From: a virus
Length of the DNA: 39,031 bases
Reading direction: 5' to 3' (one strand)
Virus genome (UHGV): UHGV-0112814
Part shown: positions 28,996 through 36,188 of the stretch, one piece after another
Position numbering within the stretch: position 1 is the stretch's first letter
How the letters are laid out: each line of letters starts with the position of its first letter
The notes under the pieces: model-generated
Database searches by the model: none
What the model saw: only the letters and a program-made list of their open reading frames with translations
Told to the model about the DNA's origin: nothing
Made by a program: the position numbers and the translations under genes

Positions 28996-29074
28996 ATGTA
29001 AGTATTTCCTTAGATAACAATTGATTGAATGTATGCAAATAAATGCATACACCATAGGTGTGGTTTAATTTGAT

Positions 29075-29106
29075 GCCCTTTTTCAGGGCTGGAATGTGTA
29101 AGAGCG
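29075..29106 (-). promoter_or_regulatory. nutR (boxA cgctctta at 29099..29106; boxB gccctgaaaaagggc at 29075..29089), followed by tR1-like sequence
   Basis: Minus strand reads cgctcttacacattccagccctgaaaaagggcatcaaattaaacc..., matching lambda nutR. Confidence 0.85.
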
Positions 29107-29114
29107 TTGATAAC

Positions 29115-29345
29115 TTAAGCAGCCATTAATTCAGGCCAGATGCTTTCCCAATCAACCGGATGAAGGTCTTTGCGAGTCACTTCACCATTGCTGAACTTCT
29201 CAATCAGAACACAAAGTGCTGCGCCCAATTCATGATTACGGCTAAGTGCTTTCCTCAAATAGCCGATAGAAGTTCCGCACTTGGTGGCAAATTCTCTCTG
29301 CTCTTCCAGTGAAAGGGAGTTCAGATACAAGCGGAGTTCTTCCAT
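29115..29345 (-). CDS. cro: Cro-like repressor (non-lambda specificity)
   Basis: 76-aa ORF divergent from cI across the operator region, RBS aaggag; HTH-like segment TKCGTSIGYLRKAL. Confidence 0.7.
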   Translation of the reverse strand: MEELRLYLNSLSLEEQREFATKCGTSIGYLRKALSRNHELGAALCVLIEKFSNGEVTRKDLHPVDWESIWPELMAA

Positions 29346-29377
29346 TTGCTATCTCCTTCCCGTTGTTGAATAAGGTG

Positions 29378-29406
29378 AGTTTACCTGCAGGTAAAAAACA
29401 AATCAA
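29378..29406 (-). promoter_or_regulatory. Putative pR promoter (-35 ttgatt, -10 taaact) overlapping operators
   Basis: Minus strand: ttgatt-17 nt-taaact upstream of the cro RBS. Confidence 0.5.
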
Positions 29407-29433
29407 TACCCACAGGTTATTTACCGATAGGTA
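29382..29433. promoter_or_regulatory. oR: three operator sites (29382..29393 perfect TACCTGCAGGTA; 29407..29418 and 29422..29433 variants)
   Basis: 12-bp palindrome and two degenerate copies in the cro-cI intergenic region. Confidence 0.6.
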
Positions 29434-29453
29434 ATCAAAGATAGAATTAAATC

Positions 29454-30140
29454 ATGGATAAATACGAACAAAGACGACTAAGGCTGATAGAGATAAGAGA
29501 CCGATTCTGTAATGGAAAGGCCTCAGAGTTGGCTCGTCGAATAGAAAGGGAACCATCATACGTTTCCAGAATGCTGTATCCGGAAGGAAAAAGCGGAAAA
29601 AAACGCATTGCTGACGATATGATGGAACTAATTGAAAAATCTTTTAATCTCCCACGCGGATGGATGGACATGCTTGCAGATAGCAAAGTTGGATCTGCAG
29701 ACCATCTTGAGTTTGCGGGTAACGTTCGTGCGGGTTTTGTTCCGGTAATTGGTGAAGCCGTTTTGGGAGTTGATGGCTCAGTGGATATGATTGAATTCAG
29801 ATCCGGTTGGTTAAGCATCTACAGTGGCGATAAAGATGCTTACGGTCTGAAGGTTAAGGGTGACAGCATGTGGCCAAGGATTCAGTCAGGAGAATATGTT
29901 GTTATTGAACCAAATACGCCAGTACATCCAGGTGATGAAGTCTTTGTAAGGACCAAAGATGGTCATAACATGATAAAGATCATGAACAAAACAAGAGACG
30001 GAGACTATCAGTTTAGTAGTATAAACAGCGATCACCGTCCAATCACTCTTCCTGTTGAAGAAGTTGATAAAATGCATTTTGTTTCAGCTATTGTGAAACA
30101 CACTAGGTACGTAGACCAGGACGATCTGCCAAAATTTTGA
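29454..30140 (+). CDS. cI: CI-type prophage repressor with C-terminal S24 (LexA-like) autopeptidase domain
   Basis: 228 aa; C-terminal GDSMWPRI ... GDEVFVR ... IKI is a LexA/S24 Ser-Lys dyad pattern; divergent from cro. Confidence 0.9.
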   Translation: MDKYEQRRLRLIEIRDRFCNGKASELARRIEREPSYVSRMLYPEGKSGKKRIADDMMELIEKSFNLPRGWMDMLADSKVGSADHLEFAGNVRAGFVPVIGEAVLGVDGSVDMIEFRSGWLSIYSGDKDAYGLKVKGDSMWPRIQSGEYVVIEPNTPVHPGDEVFVRTKDGHNMIKIMNKTRDGDYQFSSINSDHRPITLPVEEVDKMHFVSAIVKHTRYVDQDDLPKF

Positions 30141-30451
30141 GGATAAAGCAGCAAATGTTTATACCAGGTATAGTGGTCGCTGTTGTAATCATCTGCTTCA
30201 TATGGGCAAAGTTATCTCCTGTAAGCTCTAAGCATACAGCTGAACTCATGAAGAAGAAGCATCTTATACATGAGGCAGAAACGATAATTAAGAAGTTCAA
30301 AGGCATGTCATATGACGACATGTCATCAGATCAGATTGCTATGTATAAATGCGCCATTGAGCGTCTTGACCACTTAAACGGACTCAAACCCAAACACACC
30401 CCGGTAGAATCAAAATTGCCGCAATGGCCAAGCAATCCAAATAGCTTCTGA
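30137..30451 (+). CDS. Small membrane-anchored protein co-transcribed with cI (candidate lysogen-expressed exclusion function)
   Basis: 104 aa; N-terminal TM helix MFIPGIVVAVVIICFIWA; start overlaps the cI stop; followed by a strong terminator. Confidence 0.6.
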   Translation: MRIKQQMFIPGIVVAVVIICFIWAKLSPVSSKHTAELMKKKHLIHEAETIIKKFKGMSYDDMSSDQIAMYKCAIERLDHLNGLKPKHTPVESKLPQWPSNPNSF

Positions 30452-30462
30452 CATCTCCTTTC

Positions 30463-30486
30463 AGCCCGCAAAGCGGGCTTTTTTAT
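30463..30486 (+). terminator. Intrinsic terminator ending the cI operon
   Basis: agcccgc-aaa-gcgggct perfect stem followed by ttttttata. Confidence 0.75.
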
Positions 30487-30548
30487 ATCAATCCAAAAAA
30501 TTAATTACCTGAAAATTCAAACAGGTAAACTCTCACACCAATTTTATT

Positions 30549-30585
30549 TACCTGCAGGTATAGACAACAGTTTTACCTGCAGGTA
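30549..30585. promoter_or_regulatory. oL: two perfect TACCTGCAGGTA operators (30549..30560, 30574..30585) overlapping pL
   Basis: Same 12-bp palindrome as in oR, centre-to-centre spacing 25 bp. Confidence 0.6.
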
Positions 30586-30589
30586 TATT
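30561..30589 (+). promoter_or_regulatory. pL promoter (-35 tagaca, -10 tatatt), predicted +1 near 30597
   Basis: 17-bp spacing; downstream leader atcagcaggacgcac... matches the lambda pL transcript start. Confidence 0.55.
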
Positions 30590-30630
30590 TTAAGCCATCA
30601 GCAGGACGCACTAACCACCATGAAGGTGAT

Positions 30631-30660
30631 GCTCTTAAAAATTAAGCCCTGAAGAAGGGC
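30631..30660 (+). promoter_or_regulatory. nutL (boxA gctcttaaa, boxB gccctgaagaagggc at 30646..30660)
   Basis: gctcttaaaaattaagccctgaagaagggcagca matches lambda nutL. Confidence 0.85.
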
Positions 30661-30858
30661 AGCATTCAAAGCAGAAGTCTTTTGGATTGGATGAATGCGC
30701 AGGCTGATGCTCGACCAATGTATAAACAGCGCTCATGGCAAGCAGTAACCAATCTGCGCCTCAAGACAGCGTCACTGGTAGTGCGGGCGCTCTAACCAGT
30801 AAGCCGGAGTTCAGCGCCGGCCATCCAATCACCAAAGCTAACTGACAGGAGAATCCAG

Positions 30859-31185
30859 ATGGATGCACAAACACGCCGCCGCGAACGTCGCGCAGAGAAA
30901 CAGGCTCAATGGAAAGCAGCAAATCCCCTGTTGGTTGGGGTAAGCGCAAAACCAGTTAACCGCCCTATTCTCTCGCTGAATCGCAAACCGAAATCACGAG
31001 TAGAAAGCGCACTGAATCCGATAGACCTTACGGTGCTGGCTGAATACCACGAACAGATTGAAAGCAACCTGCAACGTATTGAGCGCAAGAATCAGCGCAC
31101 ATGGTACAGCAAGCCACGCAGTGAAATGGGTGTGACTTGTGTTGGTCGCCATAAAACGAAGGGCAAATCCATCGCATTAATCTGA
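30859..31185 (+). CDS. N: Antiterminator N (lambda N)
   Basis: MDAQTRRRERRAEKQAQWKAANPLLVGVSAKPVNRPILSLNRKPKSRVESALNPIDLTVLAEYH ... is lambda N, including the Arg-rich boxB-binding motif. Confidence 0.95.
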   Translation: MDAQTRRRERRAEKQAQWKAANPLLVGVSAKPVNRPILSLNRKPKSRVESALNPIDLTVLAEYHEQIESNLQRIERKNQRTWYSKPRSEMGVTCVGRHKTKGKSIALI

Positions 31186-31193
31186 GGTGGCCC

Positions 31194-31295
31194 ATGAAGA
31201 ACAGCATCAAGTGCCCGGTATGCGGTCGTGACTTCGATCCACGCACTCCGGTCTGCCACATCAGCAAGTATCACCAGTCAGCGAAGAACTGCTAG
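31194..31295 (+). CDS. Small Cys-rich (zinc-ribbon-like) ORF just downstream of N
   Basis: Own translation MKNSIKCPVCGRDFDPRTPVCHISKYHQSAKNC; RBS gaggtgg; below track cutoff. Confidence 0.3.
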   Translation: MKNSIKCPVCGRDFDPRTPVCHISKYHQSAKNC

Positions 31296-31354
31296 CTGGA
31301 GAAGATACGCGATGCCCGGCGGCAATATTTCAAAGTAACAGCGAGTGAGGTTCG

Positions 31355-31696
31355 GTGATGGAAAATAAAACGGCTAACGGGATGTACGTACTGCGTGGTG
31401 AGCTGAAAAAGGGACTGATAGCGGAGCTGGTAAAGGCATACGACCAGCTGACTCAGGAGTCAGAAAAATTAAAGATCCTCGGACTCAGGTATAACACCCC
31501 TCGACGCATTGTTTATGGCTTTATGTATGAGGTTGCAGCATTAACCGTCAAGGAAATTATGTTTAAAACTGAGGGTGGCTTTTACATCCCACAGGATGAC
31601 TTCGAATCGAGCGACGATATCGATTCATTAGCCAAAGAGATCATCGATGTAATTGACTGTAATGGCGCATTCCTTGAGCGCCTTCTTAAGGAGTAG
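31355..31696 (+). CDS. Hypothetical early-left protein (acidic C-terminus)
   Basis: 113-aa ORF with no recognisable motif; first sizeable gene after N. Confidence 0.55.
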   Translation: MMENKTANGMYVLRGELKKGLIAELVKAYDQLTQESEKLKILGLRYNTPRRIVYGFMYEVAALTVKEIMFKTEGGFYIPQDDFESSDDIDSLAKEIIDVIDCNGAFLERLLKE

Positions 31697-31697
31697 C

Positions 31698-31836
31698 CAT
31701 GAAAAAACTGTATGAAAAACTCCCGTTCGTAGTGCAGGGGGTCATTTTGGGTCTGCTTATCACTGCGGCCATTCTTCTGTCTACCCCGCCAGTCGTCATG
31801 TTTCTTCGTTGGTGGTTCAGAGTTTGGGGTGTCTGA
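31698..31836 (+). CDS. Small hydrophobic membrane peptide (46 aa), translationally coupled to the upstream gene
   Basis: Own translation MKKLYEKLPFVVQGVILGLLITAAILLSTPPVVMFLRWWFRVWGV; strong aaggag RBS; ATG 2 nt after the upstream stop. Confidence 0.4.
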
Positions 31837-31911
31837 TCGGCGCAAGCATTACGCACAGAACGAATCGAGCGGGTCGAGTGGCCTGCGGTGAATAAACAAA
31901 GGGGTGAGGGT

Positions 31912-32094
31912 ATGGAAAATTTGGACAATGAACTGAAAAGAGTAGTTCAGGAACTGGCCAATGAAGAAGGCATCAGTTTTGCCGATGCCGTGGACGTTTC
32001 GATTAAGACGCTTCGTTACGAAATTCAGCACAGAAAGTCTTTTAATGGGTCGCCTGACCCCGATGGAGGCGCATCAGGAGTAGAGGTACGCTGA
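31912..32094 (+). CDS. Hypothetical small protein
   Basis: ORF-track 31888..32094; internal ATG at 31912 (MENLDNELK) preferred. Confidence 0.4.
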   Translation: MENLDNELKRVVQELANEEGISFADAVDVSIKTLRYEIQHRKSFNGSPDPDGGASGVEVR

Positions 32095-32233
32095 CCAAAT
32101 ATCGAAGCGGCAAACAAAAATCGCTGGGGTTTGACGATTGGTGTAACTGGATAGATACGGAACTTGGTGGGATAAATAACAGGTAACTTAAGCGTATTTA
32201 CTTTCGCAGCAAACCACTTATTTGAGGTGATAT

Positions 32234-32683
32234 ATGGAAGAACAAGCAAACAAGATTCTCGTAGAACTACTGCAAAAAGCCAGTAATGGAATAGACGCGG
32301 CTGTTTCATTCAGCCAGGCACAGATTCCTGATGTTGTTCATCAGTTGCTGCTATGGAATATGGTTGACAGTCTGATTAAAACATTAATGGCCATTCTAAC
32401 AATCCCACTGGTTTTCTGGTTTATGAAGAAGCAGTGCCAAAGAGTTGAGACAGGTAAAATCGGTGATGAAGGATATTCATGGGAGAAAGGAAATCCCAAA
32501 TACATGCCGACAATGGTTTGGGATAGCAAAGGTGATATTAATCTTCTTATCATGCCATTGGTTGTAGTTTTGACTCTGTGGGGGATTTTTATTATTGGTG
32601 TAGTAACCAATATGACTTGGTTAAAAATTTGGCTGGCCCCAAAGCTTTACCTTATCGAATATGCAGCATCATTGGTTAAGTAA
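32234..32683 (+). CDS. Two-TM membrane protein, moron-like (candidate superinfection exclusion/abortive infection)
   Basis: 149 aa with two hydrophobic segments (LIKTLMAILTIPLVFWFM; INLLIMPLVVVLTLWGIFIIGVV); preceded by a 139-bp gap with a possible promoter and followed by a terminator. Confidence 0.6.
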   Translation: MEEQANKILVELLQKASNGIDAAVSFSQAQIPDVVHQLLLWNMVDSLIKTLMAILTIPLVFWFMKKQCQRVETGKIGDEGYSWEKGNPKYMPTMVWDSKGDINLLIMPLVVVLTLWGIFIIGVVTNMTWLKIWLAPKLYLIEYAASLVK

Positions 32684-32688
32684 TTTCA

Positions 32689-32712
32689 GGCCGCATAGTC
32701 GGCCTTTATTTT
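32689..32712 (+). terminator. Intrinsic terminator after the membrane-protein moron
   Basis: ggccg-catagt-cggcc stem followed by tttatttt. Confidence 0.5.
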
Positions 32713-32729
32713 GGGCATAAACAACAGAG

Positions 32730-33026
32730 GTGAATATGAAATATACGCCAGGTCCATGGAAGTGGTGGACAAGTAACAGCTTCCTGCGATTAAGCAGCCA
32801 GGCTACAGGTAAAGATGGTGGAGTAATTGACTCTTATGTGATGCGTGATGGTCATCCTTCACTGCGCGTTAGCAAAGAAGATATGGCTCTAATAGCTGCA
32901 GCTCCAGATTTACTCGAAGCTCTGCAAGATTTGCTTATTCGTGTCGCTGATGATGAAGAGTATGGGCCTGAACATGCAATTACTCGGGCTCGCGCAGCAA
33001 TCAGTAAGGCTCTTGGGGAGGAGTGA
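32730..33026 (+). CDS. Hypothetical protein
   Basis: 98-aa ORF; stop overlaps the next start. Confidence 0.5.
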   Translation: MNMKYTPGPWKWWTSNSFLRLSSQATGKDGGVIDSYVMRDGHPSLRVSKEDMALIAAAPDLLEALQDLLIRVADDEEYGPEHAITRARAAISKALGEE

Positions 33027-33280
33027 TGGGTAATTTAGATAACGGTGGTTATGCATTCCCTATTCCGAATGCAGATTTTCAGACGTTTGCACCACACACT
33101 GTTGATGAATATAGGCGCATTCAATCAGGAATGACATTACGTGATTACTTCGCGGCAAAGGCTATGCAAGCAATGATTAGCAATCCATCGATTATCGATA
33201 ATGATTCTGATGGAGCTGTTAATTATGCAGCAAGCGCTGCATATAAGTTTGCAGACGCAATGCTCAAAGCTCGCGAATAA
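33023..33280 (+). CDS. Hypothetical protein
   Basis: 85-aa ORF, translationally coupled to the upstream gene. Confidence 0.5.
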   Translation: MMGNLDNGGYAFPIPNADFQTFAPHTVDEYRRIQSGMTLRDYFAAKAMQAMISNPSIIDNDSDGAVNYAASAAYKFADAMLKARE

Positions 33281-33375
33281 GCACTGTGTATTCATTCCAA
33301 CGAGTGAATACACGGAGCAATGTCGCTCGTAACTAAACAGGAGCCGACTTGTTCTGATTATTGGAAATCTTCTTT

Positions 33376-33401
33376 GCCCTCCAGTGTGAGGGCCTTTTTA
33401 T
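33376..33401 (+). terminator. Intrinsic terminator in the early-left operon, upstream of the cIII-like gene
   Basis: gccctc-cagtgt-gagggc perfect stem followed by ctttttatat. Confidence 0.55.
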
Positions 33402-33465
33402 ATGCATACCAATAACGCTTCACTCGAGGCGTTTTCGTTATGCAATCAAACAGAAGGAGCATCCT

Positions 33466-33636
33466 ATGCAACAGTTCGCTATTGCAGGGGCGGCATCGGT
33501 TCGCCCTTTCAACCCGATTTTATCGGTGCAGCATTCACGAAAAAATATTTTAACCGGAGCAGACTTTAAACAACCTCGCGTTAAGAGCTTGCTGGATCGT
33601 CTTGTTGAGTTTCTGAATCAAAAGGTACAGCCATGA
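33466..33636 (+). CDS. cIII: CIII-like small protein (possible FtsH inhibitor)
   Basis: 56 aa, MQQFAIAGAA ... KSLLDRLVEFLNQ loosely resembles lambda CIII; RBS aaggag. Confidence 0.45.
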   Translation: MQQFAIAGAASVRPFNPILSVQHSRKNILTGADFKQPRVKSLLDRLVEFLNQKVQP

Positions 33637-33797
33637 AAAAACCAACTTACGAGGAACTGGAAGAAGCCCTGAAAGAGCTTAGAAGAATAGCTTTCGCCAG
33701 ACGCACTAACTCTCACAACTGCGGCCCATTTCAGTACTCGGATTTATGCGAGGACATCATTGAGGTAACTCAACTGATTAAGGTCGTTAAGCAATGA
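33633..33797 (+). CDS. Small hypothetical protein (54 aa)
   Basis: Own translation MKKPTYEELEEALKELRRIAFARRTNSHNCGPFQYSDLCEDIIEVTQLIKVVKQ; start overlaps the cIII-like stop. Confidence 0.35.
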   Translation: MKKPTYEELEEALKELRRIAFARRTNSHNCGPFQYSDLCEDIIEVTQLIKVVKQ

Positions 33798-33878
33798 GTA
33801 TTGCGGATACATGGTCAGACGAAGAATTCATTCGTCAGATGAACAAAATGCTCAATCAGCACAAAGAACAGGATAAAG

Positions 33879-34190
33879 ATGATGATTCTGACTCTGAATG
33901 ATAAGCGTGAAATATCGCAAATAATCGCAAGTTTTACTGATGAAGATTACGAACGAATCAACAGTGAAGTTGATCGCCTCTGCAAACGTTGCGACCCAAT
34001 AAGCGAAATGCTTCGCTCATATAAACCAGATGAACACACTAAGGACGCTATCGACTGGCTGGAAGATGATGACTGTAACTATCAGGAAAAAGCCGCTGAA
34101 TGGTTCTGGGATGCAATAACCGAAAGAGTTAAGGCTGAATATGCCTTCGCAATATTCAAACGCAGACACATTTTTGGAGAAGCAGCATGA
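33879..34190 (+). CDS. Hypothetical protein
   Basis: 103-aa ORF immediately upstream of recT with stop/start overlap. Confidence 0.5.
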   Translation: MMILTLNDKREISQIIASFTDEDYERINSEVDRLCKRCDPISEMLRSYKPDEHTKDAIDWLEDDDCNYQEKAAEWFWDAITERVKAEYAFAIFKRRHIFGEAA

Positions 34191-35098
34191 GCAATATCGT
34201 TGAATTCGTTAAACAGCAAGAGCAGTTATTCTGCGGAGCATTGACTGAACAGACGGTGACATGGGCTAAGGAAAGCCAGTTTGCAATTCAGTATTTCCAG
34301 AAAAATGATTACCTGGCTAAAACTGCACTGGCAAATCCAACCAGCGCACAGAACGCCATCATCAATGTTGCGGCGATCGGCATCACCTTAAACCCGGCTA
34401 GCAAACTGGCTTATCTGGTTCCGCGCGACGGCATGGTGTGCCTTGATATCAGCTATATGGGATTACTACATATTGCAATGGAGTCTGGTGTTATCTCATG
34501 GGGTCAGGCAAAGCTTGTTCATGCTAACGATACTTATGAGTCAAACGGACTTGATAAAGCACCAACCCATAAATACAACGCCTTCGGTGATCGTGGCGAT
34601 ATCGTTGGTGTTTACTGCACAGTTAAGACGCCAGCAGGTGATTATCTAACGGAAGAGATGAGTCTGGCTGAAATTGAGGCTGTAAGGAAAACAAGCAAGG
34701 CGGCATTCAGCGATAAAGGACCATGGGTAAATCACTGGAATGAGATGGCGCGAAAGACGGTCGTAAAGCGTGCAAGCAAGTATTGGCCTAAGGCATCACG
34801 TCTTGATAGTGCTATTCACGTACTAAACGAAGAAGAAGGTGTATGGACTGAACCAGTTATGCCGCACAAATCAGAGGAAGATATACGCGAAGATGAACGG
34901 AAACGCCAGCAGGAAATAACGGATAAAGCACAACTTCTTTGTGATGAAATGGCTCAGGCTGAAAACATGGATGATTTGAAGAGATATTTTGCAGAAGCAT
35001 ATCGCCTGACATCTGGAATGAAATTGCAGCAGAACATACAAGCCATTTACATAGAATGCAAAGCGAAACTGGAGGTTGCCAGTGAGCAAACTATATGA
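34187..35098 (+). CDS. recT: RecT-family single-strand annealing recombinase
   Basis: 303 aa; pattern INVAAIGITLNP ... LAYLVPRDG ... ISYMGLLHIA ... WNEMARKTVVKR typical of RecT/Redbeta proteins. Confidence 0.8.
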   Translation: MSNIVEFVKQQEQLFCGALTEQTVTWAKESQFAIQYFQKNDYLAKTALANPTSAQNAIINVAAIGITLNPASKLAYLVPRDGMVCLDISYMGLLHIAMESGVISWGQAKLVHANDTYESNGLDKAPTHKYNAFGDRGDIVGVYCTVKTPAGDYLTEEMSLAEIEAVRKTSKAAFSDKGPWVNHWNEMARKTVVKRASKYWPKASRLDSAIHVLNEEEGVWTEPVMPHKSEEDIREDERKRQQEITDKAQLLCDEMAQAENMDDLKRYFAEAYRLTSGMKLQQNIQAIYIECKAKLEVASEQTI

Positions 35099-35564
35099 AA
35101 TTGCCAATGAATACGCAAAATTGATGGATTCAGATTTAGAACCAGAGATGATTGCTGACACAATAGAAGGCATGGAAGGAGAATTTACCGATAAAATAGA
35201 ACAACTTCTTTCCGTCATTAAAAATGAATCTGGTTATGCCGAACGCCTCAAGGAAGAGGCAAAGTCACTGAATGAGCGAGCCGCAGTAATTCAAAATAAG
35301 ATTGACAGCATCAAATCATATATAGCGTCATCGCTTGAAATGGTTGGCAAGAAAAATATTCGAGCAGGTATTCACCAGGTAACAATCCGCAAACCGTCAG
35401 AAATTGTAGAAATAATCGACTCAAGCGCCCTTCCTCCTGAATACGTTGAGTTTGAAACGACAATTAAAGCCGACAAACTGGCAATCAAGCACCAACTAAA
35501 AGCAGGAATAAATATTCCCGGTGCTCAACTCAAGGTTGGGAAACCTTCACTTCTTATCAAATAA
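35082..35564 (+). CDS. Gp157-family protein (accessory to recombination genes); GTG start
   Basis: ORF-track 35076..35564; GTG at 35082 has the better ggagg RBS spacing. Confidence 0.55.
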   Translation: MSKLYEIANEYAKLMDSDLEPEMIADTIEGMEGEFTDKIEQLLSVIKNESGYAERLKEEAKSLNERAAVIQNKIDSIKSYIASSLEMVGKKNIRAGIHQVTIRKPSEIVEIIDSSALPPEYVEFETTIKADKLAIKHQLKAGINIPGAQLKVGKPSLLIK

Positions 35565-35575
35565 CGGTATCGCCT

Positions 35576-35890
35576 ATGAAAAAGACTCCATGGGAGAAAT
35601 GGGAAGTCGATTTCTTGCGCGAAGTAGCGGCGACAATGCCAGTTGAAGTTATCGCTGAAAAACTGGGAAGGACTGAAAAAGCAGTAATGGCGAAAGCAAC
35701 AAGGATTGGCGCTGACATTGTTAGCCGACTTCGTGGAAGACGATGGACAAGAGCCGAAGTATCACTTTTCGGTAAGTTCTCCGCAGAAGAAATAGCAATT
35801 GCAACCTGCCGCTCAATTTATTCAGTAAGAGCTATGCGATACAAGCTAAAAAAACTCGATGAAGAAAGAGCAGGCATACGAATAAATTAA
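35576..35890 (+). CDS. Hypothetical protein with two internally similar ~40-aa segments
   Basis: 104-aa ORF; the two halves share W..EV..L...EEIA..R..AV.A pattern. Confidence 0.5.
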   Translation: MKKTPWEKWEVDFLREVAATMPVEVIAEKLGRTEKAVMAKATRIGADIVSRLRGRRWTRAEVSLFGKFSAEEIAIATCRSIYSVRAMRYKLKKLDEERAGIRIN

Positions 35891-35906
35891 CATGGAGTAA
35901 TTAACA

Positions 35907-36188
35907 ATGAAGCTAAACATCGACCTCGGAAAATACGTTATTACCGGAACCAAACACGACCTGATTCTTAGCGAAAGAGGAATTATCAAAGAAGGCGAGA
36001 ATGCAGGGAAAGAAACACTAAGTCGTATCGGTTATTACAGCAAGTTTGAGCATCTGGTTAAAGAGTTATGCAACCGTGAAATCCTGTTATCTCAGGCGCA
36101 GACGCTACAGGATATTCAGCAGCATATCGAAACTTTAGGTATGTCACTTAGCATGGCTGTTGACCAGTTCGTGGAGAGTAAATCATGA
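35907..36188 (+). CDS. Hypothetical protein
   Basis: 93-aa ORF in the early-left operon. Confidence 0.5.

Follow-up and report, generated by a model that had tools for sequence, protein, structure and literature searches.

A two-helix membrane-protein gene as probable exchangeable cargo of the N-proximal early-left operon in a P22-like phage genome

The 149-aa gene described here probably occupies an exchangeable cargo slot of the N-proximal PL operon, being driven by PL together with N rather than by a promoter of its own, and its product plausibly acts at the envelope during lytic growth. The gene lies in UHGV virus genome UHGV-0112814, a stretch of 39,031 nucleotides that was analysed as a whole (hereafter the window) and that is a P22-like (Lederbergvirus-type) lambdoid phage genome with its early-left operon on the + strand. 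A preliminary description had portrayed the gene as an autonomous moron, i.e., a promoter-gene-terminator unit expressed from the prophage, whose product could be a SieB-like exclusion protein. This portrayal did not survive comparison with relatives, as the proposed promoter is a chance-level match, the mobile unit starts 9-28 nt before the ATG, and the sequences found upstream of it are heterogeneous. The features on which our argument rests are collected in Table 1.

Table 1. Coordinates of the features in and around the early-left operon (positions in the window).
Feature	Position	Strand	Remarks
cI-type repressor gene	29454-30140		
ORF in rex position	30137-30451	+	104 aa; strong terminator behind it (30463-30479)
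PL-like promoter	30561-30589	+	TAGACA-17-TATATT amid repeated operator-like TTTACCTGCAGGTAT motifs
nutL-like site	30630-30660	+	boxA-like tgctcttaa and boxB GCCCTGAAGAAGGGC; boxB hairpin also found by a scan
Lambda-type N antiterminator gene	30859-31185	+	1,049 nt upstream of the target gene, same strand
Small co-oriented ORFs	31194-32094	+	33, 113, 45 and 68 aa
Gap	32095-32233	+	139 bp from the stop of the 68-aa ORF
Gap, part 1	32095-32132		unique to the orf68 lineage
Mosaic joint with the orf68 lineage	~32131-32135		inside the proposed -35
Candidate promoter	32131-32157	+	ttgacg 32131-32136, tagata 32152-32157, 15-nt spacer
Gap, part 2	32133-32177		5'-truncated, frameshifted 3' remnant of an Sf6-gene-36-type ORF; 4-nt deletion
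Gap, part 3	32178-32233		spacer that precedes orf28/ral in Sf6 and others, and a 60-aa ORF in mEpX1
Left boundary sequence	32206-32245	+	3'-end-of-N-like stretch, Shine-Dalgarno GAGGTG 32224-32229, ATGGAAGAACAA
Target gene	32234-32683	+	149 aa, two TM helices, phrog_3054
Hairpin and T-run	32688-32713	+	6-bp G+C-rich stem, terminator-like
Right boundary sequence	32695-32728	+	3' arm of the hairpin, T-run, ggcataaacaacag
Co-oriented ORFs after the target gene	from 32730	+	98 and 85 aa, then others
GCCCTCCAGTGTGAGGGC and T-run	33376-33400	+	equivalent to Sf6 tL2A and to an annotated rho-independent terminator of mEpX1
Recombination module	34187-35098 (RecT)		RecT and a Mu-Gam-like gene

The early-left region runs in the order PL-like promoter, boxA/boxB, N, co-oriented ORFs and target gene, and no divergent promoter or gene is found between them. 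The boxB element is one that we take to be identical to the lambda nutL boxB, and the target gene, being downstream of PL and nutL on the strand of N, has the position of an N-antiterminated PL-operon gene. The PL-like promoter is the likely source of its transcription. The earlier placement of a 149-aa gene with two TM segments inside the early-left operon was confirmed, with respect to the ORF, to its two hydrophobic segments and to the PL and N elements upstream. Its Shine-Dalgarno sequence is located 4 nt ahead of the ATG, and its G+C content amounts to 39.3% compared with 47.4% for the window.

Several neighbouring ORFs are worth recording in their own right. The ORF in rex position overlaps the stop of the cI-type repressor gene, probably starts at the ATG at 30155, encodes an N-terminal hydrophobic segment and matches phrog_10450 (function unknown), and the terminator behind it consists of a strong 7-bp G+C hairpin and a T-run. 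As this ORF takes the place of lambda rexAB, it outranks the target gene as a candidate for a lysogen membrane protein that is co-transcribed with the repressor. A 33-aa Cys-rich ORF (MKNSIKCPVCGRDFDPRTPVCHISKYHQSAKNC; 31194-31295, + strand) begins 8 nt past the N stop and has the appearance of a zinc-ribbon mini-protein, its match to phrog_6332 being weak (E = 9e-4), while a 45-aa ORF of the same operon (31699-31836, + strand) encodes a single hydrophobic helix (MKKLYEKLPFVVQGVILGLLITAAILLSTPPVVMFLRWWFRVWGV) and gave no family match. On the other side of the target gene, the 98-aa (phrog_1273) and 85-aa (phrog_2201) ORFs at 32730-33280 (+ strand), neither with an assigned function, are insertions when compared with lambda and sit between the right boundary of the slot and the conserved cactgcactgtgtattcattcc, which is found directly 3' of ral in lambda.

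The unusual gap ahead of the target gene does measure 139 bp when counted from the stop of the 68-aa ORF, as had been noted, and alignment with Sf6, mEpX1 and two E. coli prophages resolved it into the three parts given in Table 1. The complete gap was found in only 3 of the 5,426 complete E. coli genomes, and the part that comprises the gene 36 tail and the spacer in about 130. As the gap is assembled from joined pieces and is whole in three genomes, we regard it as a recombination scar rather than a control region. Folding of both of its strands yielded z-scores of +0.5 and -0.8, which speaks against a structured RNA in the gap, and an Rfam search of 30400-33500 returned nothing above chance and no match in the gap itself.

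The hexamers of the promoter suggested within this gap, and the 15-nt spacer between them, are located as described, yet the status of a promoter could not be upheld for them. TTGACG agrees with the -35 consensus at five of six positions, but TTGACG-15-TAGATA as a whole matches the consensus at only 8 of 12, the spacer is short and the last T of the -10 (the -7 T) is missing. The + strand of the window contains 572 matches of this grade (at least 8/12, spacer of 15-19 nt), a density of 14.7 per kb. A scan for closer matches (at least 9/12, spacer of 16-18 nt) detected no promoter in the 139-bp gap, thus missing the candidate, and over 29000-36000 it retrieved 8 sites, fewer than the 13.2 in shuffled sequences. 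In relatives with an intact gene 36, TCGATG stands in place of TTGACG, and the proposed -10 is part of the gene 36 coding sequence. Upstream of nearly all relatives of the target gene the candidate promoter is missing. From these comparisons, it appears to be a chance-level match that was created at the mosaic joint.

What moves with the gene was deduced from where similarity starts and stops. Phage records and E. coli genomes resemble the target region from window positions 32206-32225 up to 32728, and these breakpoints define a mobile unit composed of ribosome-binding site, gene and hairpin (~32206-32728), the start of which lies just 9-28 nt ahead of the ATG. Upstream sequences were compared in about 90 close relatives (80 IMG/VR loci and annotated records), where the unit is preceded by the end of N, by the hairpin and T-run that close off another cassette, such as that of ral (34 loci), or by a lambda-like spacer; a gap like that of the window is present in only five loci, the window included. 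Wherever N was found in a locus, it is upstream of the target gene and on the same strand, at a distance of 9-1280 nt from the ATG, and in 12 loci the N stop is 9 nt ahead of it. This constant polarity argues against a self-sufficient unit, which would not need it.

The edges of the unit are shared with cassettes of other content. The left boundary sequence is also found ahead of lambda orf28, Gally gene 31 and mEpX1_037, and the right boundary sequence is common to the region just 3' of lambda ral and to the mEpX1 slot. The cargo enclosed is orf28 and ral in lambda, a 60-aa ORF in mEpX1, ral and a divergent allele of the target gene in Sf6, and other genes in Gally. Besides, tandem cassettes between N and cIII were seen to reuse both the left boundary (3'-end-of-N-like sequence, Shine-Dalgarno sequence and ATGGAAGAA) and the right boundary GGCCTTTATTTTTGG in the regions compared (window 32206-32245 and 32695-32728; L004:2672-2960; L002:3080-3440; L012:2570-2815), so that the array of small N-cIII genes looks like a series of repeated slots. 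The Sf6 record annotates 'bsq' boundary elements, and the exchange of genes through boundary sequences has already been described for HK620 and Sf6-type phages.

The target gene is thus accessory rather than core, as the preliminary description had supposed: it was found at a coverage of at least 80% in 130 of the 5,426 complete E. coli genomes, and the same slot is filled otherwise in lambda, mEpX1, Sf6 and Gally. In the looser sense of the term, in which any inserted gene qualifies (PMC2629481), it may be called a moron. In the stricter sense, a sigma-70 promoter of its own would have to travel with the gene, and none that does so was found. That the gene is nonetheless transcribed in lysogens from a sigma-70 promoter in the gap, ends at its own terminator and encodes a SieB-like exclusion protein is, in our judgement, very unlikely. 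Its accessory nature, its lower G+C content, the good -35 hexamer and the terminator-like hairpin behind it all agree with such a reading, as does the looser definition. On the other hand, the candidate promoter is of a kind met by chance and was overlooked by the consensus scan, its -35 falls on a joint, the full gap is confined to 3 of the 5,426 E. coli genomes, the cassette travels without the gap promoter and often abuts N, and homologues occur in virulent phages. The proposed SieB likeness was also discarded. An hhalign comparison of the target with P22 SieB gave a probability of 0.4%, i.e., no similarity, and the one with P22 SieA a probability of 0.1%, i.e., no homology; moreover, the orientation is the opposite one, and genuine sieB genes co-occur with members of the target family, beside which they were found in Oslo, SPN9CC and 10 further loci (12 loci).

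The hairpin downstream of the target gene was picked up by a terminator scan. It comprises AGGCCGcatagtCGGCCT at 32688-32705 (arms AGGCCG and CGGCCT, loop catagt), with TTATTTTG directly behind, and has a free energy of -9.7 kcal/mol (z = -2.1) that was matched by 9 of 200 shuffled sequences. The complete hairpin also follows the unrelated gene mEpX1_037, and its 3' arm together with the T-run follow lambda ral. As it is common to unrelated cargo, the hairpin belongs to the slot and not to the target gene; hence, the terminator-like structure reported after the gene is indeed present, but it is not specific to that gene. Among 89 relatives, 68 have it in strong form and 18 have it weakened or lost, and a few variants either maintain the pairing through G-U changes or have rebuilt the stem, in one case to 7 bp and with a better T-run. 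The ral gene of Sf6 has at its end a 9-bp hairpin and T-run of its own, which overlaps the ral stop codon, and the gp34 allele begins 48 nt past this hairpin and carries a second one.

Whether this hairpin terminates transcription can be argued in two ways. It might be no terminator but a recombination boundary, or a 3' element that stabilises or processes mRNA, in which case the unit would lack its own terminator as well as its own promoter. We consider this possible but rather doubtful. The stem is of just 6 bp with the modest energy given above, the T-run is interrupted, the sequence is shared by unrelated cargo, the hairpin has degraded in the 18 relatives although these retain the gene, and the Sf6 and mEpX1 records annotate the downstream GCCCTCCAGTGTGAGGGC hairpin as the terminator instead; in the window, the latter belongs to a second terminator-like cluster at 33376-33433, the counterpart of Sf6 tL2A. 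Against this, the hairpin conforms to the intrinsic-terminator consensus, the variants preserve or rebuild its pairing, and the Sf6 ral cassette terminates in an analogous 9-bp hairpin and T-run.

We return to the reading of the gene as exchangeable cargo of the PL operon, as which it is best described from sequence comparison: it appears as a swappable accessory operon cassette, and a promoter of its own finds no support. The left edge of the slot would be formed by a short stretch that stems from the end of N, the Shine-Dalgarno sequence and ATGGAAGAA, and the right edge by the hairpin/T-run sequence; homologous recombination at these boundaries would swap the cargo, which in the window would be the 149-aa gene alone. 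The gene would be transcribed from PL together with N. The hairpin at 32688-32713 is the first canonical hairpin with a T-run downstream of PL, no other being found between PL/nutL and 32688, and the target gene is apparently the last one before the first intrinsic terminator, which may place it on the N-independent immediate-early transcript, with the proviso that Rho-dependent terminators between N and the gene are invisible to sequence. N-modified polymerase would then pass the hairpin and go on to transcribe the recombination genes. It counts against this reading that a terminator-like hairpin immediately precedes the target gene in 34 relatives, where the gene must need N or an unrecognised promoter, and that the hairpin behind the gene is degraded or missing in the 18 relatives mentioned.

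The target protein matches the phrog_3054 profile over its full length (E = 3.2e-64; residues 1-149 against profile positions 1-137 of 137), as do all of 57 diverse relatives. Searches of Pfam, NCBIfam and PADLOC with the target protein gave no match, and neither did the holin families in Pfam and PHROGs nor the defence and anti-defence resources searched; Pfam scans of the 57 relatives produced scattered noise only, and a PDB sequence-profile search returned only chance GPCR matches (E ~0.9). Hydrophobic segments span residues ~46-64 and ~103-125. AlphaFold2 models from alignments of 57 and 134 sequences had a mean pLDDT of 66 and 67, respectively, and were confident only in the TM helices, confidence being low at the conserved termini. 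With such a low-confidence model as query, Foldseek retrieved from BFVD only uncharacterised members of the family (e.g., from Pseudomonas phage Bjorn). Literature searches by PHROG id, conserved peptide motifs and the terms early-left operon, moron and RNA-seq yielded no functional or transcript data on phrog_3054.

Conservation in this family is concentrated at the ends (residues 1-44 and 126-149), the TM1-loop-TM2 core being variable: mean column identity is 0.64 for the N-terminal 44 residues and 0.78 for the C-terminal 24 residues, compared with 0.23-0.34 for the TM helices and loop. Gln37, Ala135, Pro136 and Lys137 are invariant in the alignment of 134 sequences, as are Phe26, Pro32 and Trp41 in that of 57 sequences, and a C-terminal helix of the pattern W-x-K-I-W-x-A-P-K-L-Y-L-x-E-Y is constant in phrog_3054. 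Lys and Arg residues average 6.5 in the loop and 2.2 in the N-tail, the net charge of which is -3.4. According to the positive-inside rule, a loop rich in Lys/Arg and an acidic N-tail would place the loop in the cytoplasm and the termini in the periplasm, suggesting that the product is probably an inner-membrane hairpin protein that exposes its acidic N-tail and its aromatic C-terminal helix to the periplasm.

The family is large, with 516 clusters when sequences are grouped at 90% identity and, among matches with an E value of 0.001 or better, 1,846 representatives at 50%, and tblastn detected it in 179 phage records, among them Pseudomonas and Rheinheimera phages. Virulent carriers include N4-like phages (FSL SP-076 and the Vibrio Pariacacavirus) and the rV5-like Justusliebigvirus. 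In these various genomes the gene sits in early or middle regions. When the family profile was run against the regions of lambda, P22 and N4 that were compared, no homologue was obtained. N4 gp18 (L097:3669-3983), for its part, is a clear homologue of P22 gp17 (L015:2915-3226; E = 5e-42), and according to the annotation of the P22 record, gene 17 lets the phage grow on Fels-2 lysogens. At least two accessory early families, gp17 and phrog_3054, are hence common to lambdoid phages and virulent N4-like phages. Within the target family, alleles of 149 aa (window 32234-32683), 140 aa (Sf6 gp34, L002:3432-3854) and 121 aa (SPN9CC, L014:2525-2890) show intragenic mosaicism. Nucleotide identity among these three is ~97% in the initial ~125 nt and again in the final ~75 nt plus the hairpin, while their central TM1-loop-TM2 parts cannot be aligned. 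Near-identical ends around non-alignable cores imply that recombination took place inside the gene.

The features that bear on the role of the protein are its early position, its presence in virulent phages and its membrane location, and from these it plausibly acts at the envelope during lytic development. We do not think that it is a conversion gene expressed from the prophage. By analogy, superinfection exclusion in the manner of T4 Imm would be the most likely role, followed by counter-defence.

The latter alternative would keep the gene as a PL-driven cassette but make its product a counter-defence factor against membrane-acting Abi or exclusion effectors of prophages or of the host; we deem it unlikely. 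The gene does reside among N-cIII anti-defence genes such as ral, and in BEN2908 it is directly ahead of a homologue of P22 gp17. N4-like phages carry it in the post-RNAP region, and the same region of N4 itself includes the gp17 homologue and rIIA-like genes. Virulent phages, in which the gene is found, gain from counter-defence, and a hypervariable core between constant, recombining ends is suggestive of an arms race. Nevertheless, the case is one of guilt by association: a gp17 homologue adjoins the gene in only one of ~95 loci, the defence and anti-defence resources searched gave no match, and the variable core can also stem from weak constraint on TM segments.

Small proteins with two TM segments have the topology of class II holins, and it could be asked whether the target is a component of lysis timing, either holin/antiholin-like or membrane-permeabilising. 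In addition to the topology, the occurrence in virulent as well as temperate phages would be compatible with such a function. We regard it as exceedingly improbable, since the gene is encoded in early regions, far from lysis cassettes, no holin family of Pfam or PHROGs matches it, and conservation falls on the soluble or interfacial termini and not on the TM helices. For the family as a whole, we offer only the tentative suggestion that phrog_3054 might constitute a large, unrecognised class of early inner-membrane proteins with a new mechanism of superinfection exclusion or counter-defence, the specificity of which would reside in the variable core.

Had the gene proved an autonomous moron, it would have been a further lysogenic-conversion or exclusion gene under regulation of its own; the evidence points instead to routine mosaic cargo in the early-left operon. 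Nearly identical copies are already deposited and annotated as hypothetical proteins, and the findings make no long-standing question testable. Only two points are mildly unusual, namely that so large and widespread a family is uncharacterised and that its alleles are mosaic within the gene. As phrog_3054 is large, broadly spread and functionally blank, and as its combination of conserved ends with a variable core is out of the ordinary, it is a reasonable candidate for a functional screen.

Among characterised systems, T4 Imm, an early protein of small size, sits in the inner membrane with two hydrophobic segments and blocks DNA entry. The target shares with it the small size, the probable inner-membrane location, the two hydrophobic segments and the early position, but no homology was detected, and exact size and conserved motifs differ; hence, the parallel is a functional analogy only. 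SieB of P22 and lambda resembles the target as a membrane-associated accessory protein of the N-ral neighbourhood; however, sieB runs antisense to PL in lambda, P22, Oslo and SPN9CC, and a promoter of its own has been mapped for it, whereas the target gene is on the PL strand. Lambda orf28-ral and mEpX1_037 occupy the same slot as the target gene, between the same left boundary (ribosome-binding site and ATGGAAGAA) and right boundary (GGCCTTTATTTTTGGCATAAA...). Their cargo is unrelated to it, Ral being a soluble restriction-alleviation protein, and the lambda slot, unlike that of the window, does not contain the complete hairpin. Closer to the target are the Sf6 gene 34 protein (AAQ12224.1) and the 121-aa allele of SPN9CC, N7 and HK633, which belong to the same family (profile E = 8.6e-46 and 1.5e-42) and share slot and hairpin with it, although they consist of 140 and 121 aa compared with 149 aa, overall identity is 48-57%, and in Sf6, unlike in the window, the gene comes after orf28 and ral. 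Finally, HF4s_0037 (QOI58141.1, 'TM helix-containing protein'), GALLYPH_30 and the prophage proteins of the WP_000392425 type represent the same gene at 96-99% identity. The 139-bp gap of the window is absent from HF4s, Gally and similar prophage copies, the gene beginning 9 nt after N in HF4s and following the hairpin of another cassette in Gally, whereas the ribosome-binding site, the downstream hairpin and the location in the PL operon are the same in HF4s, Gally, the E. coli prophages and the window.
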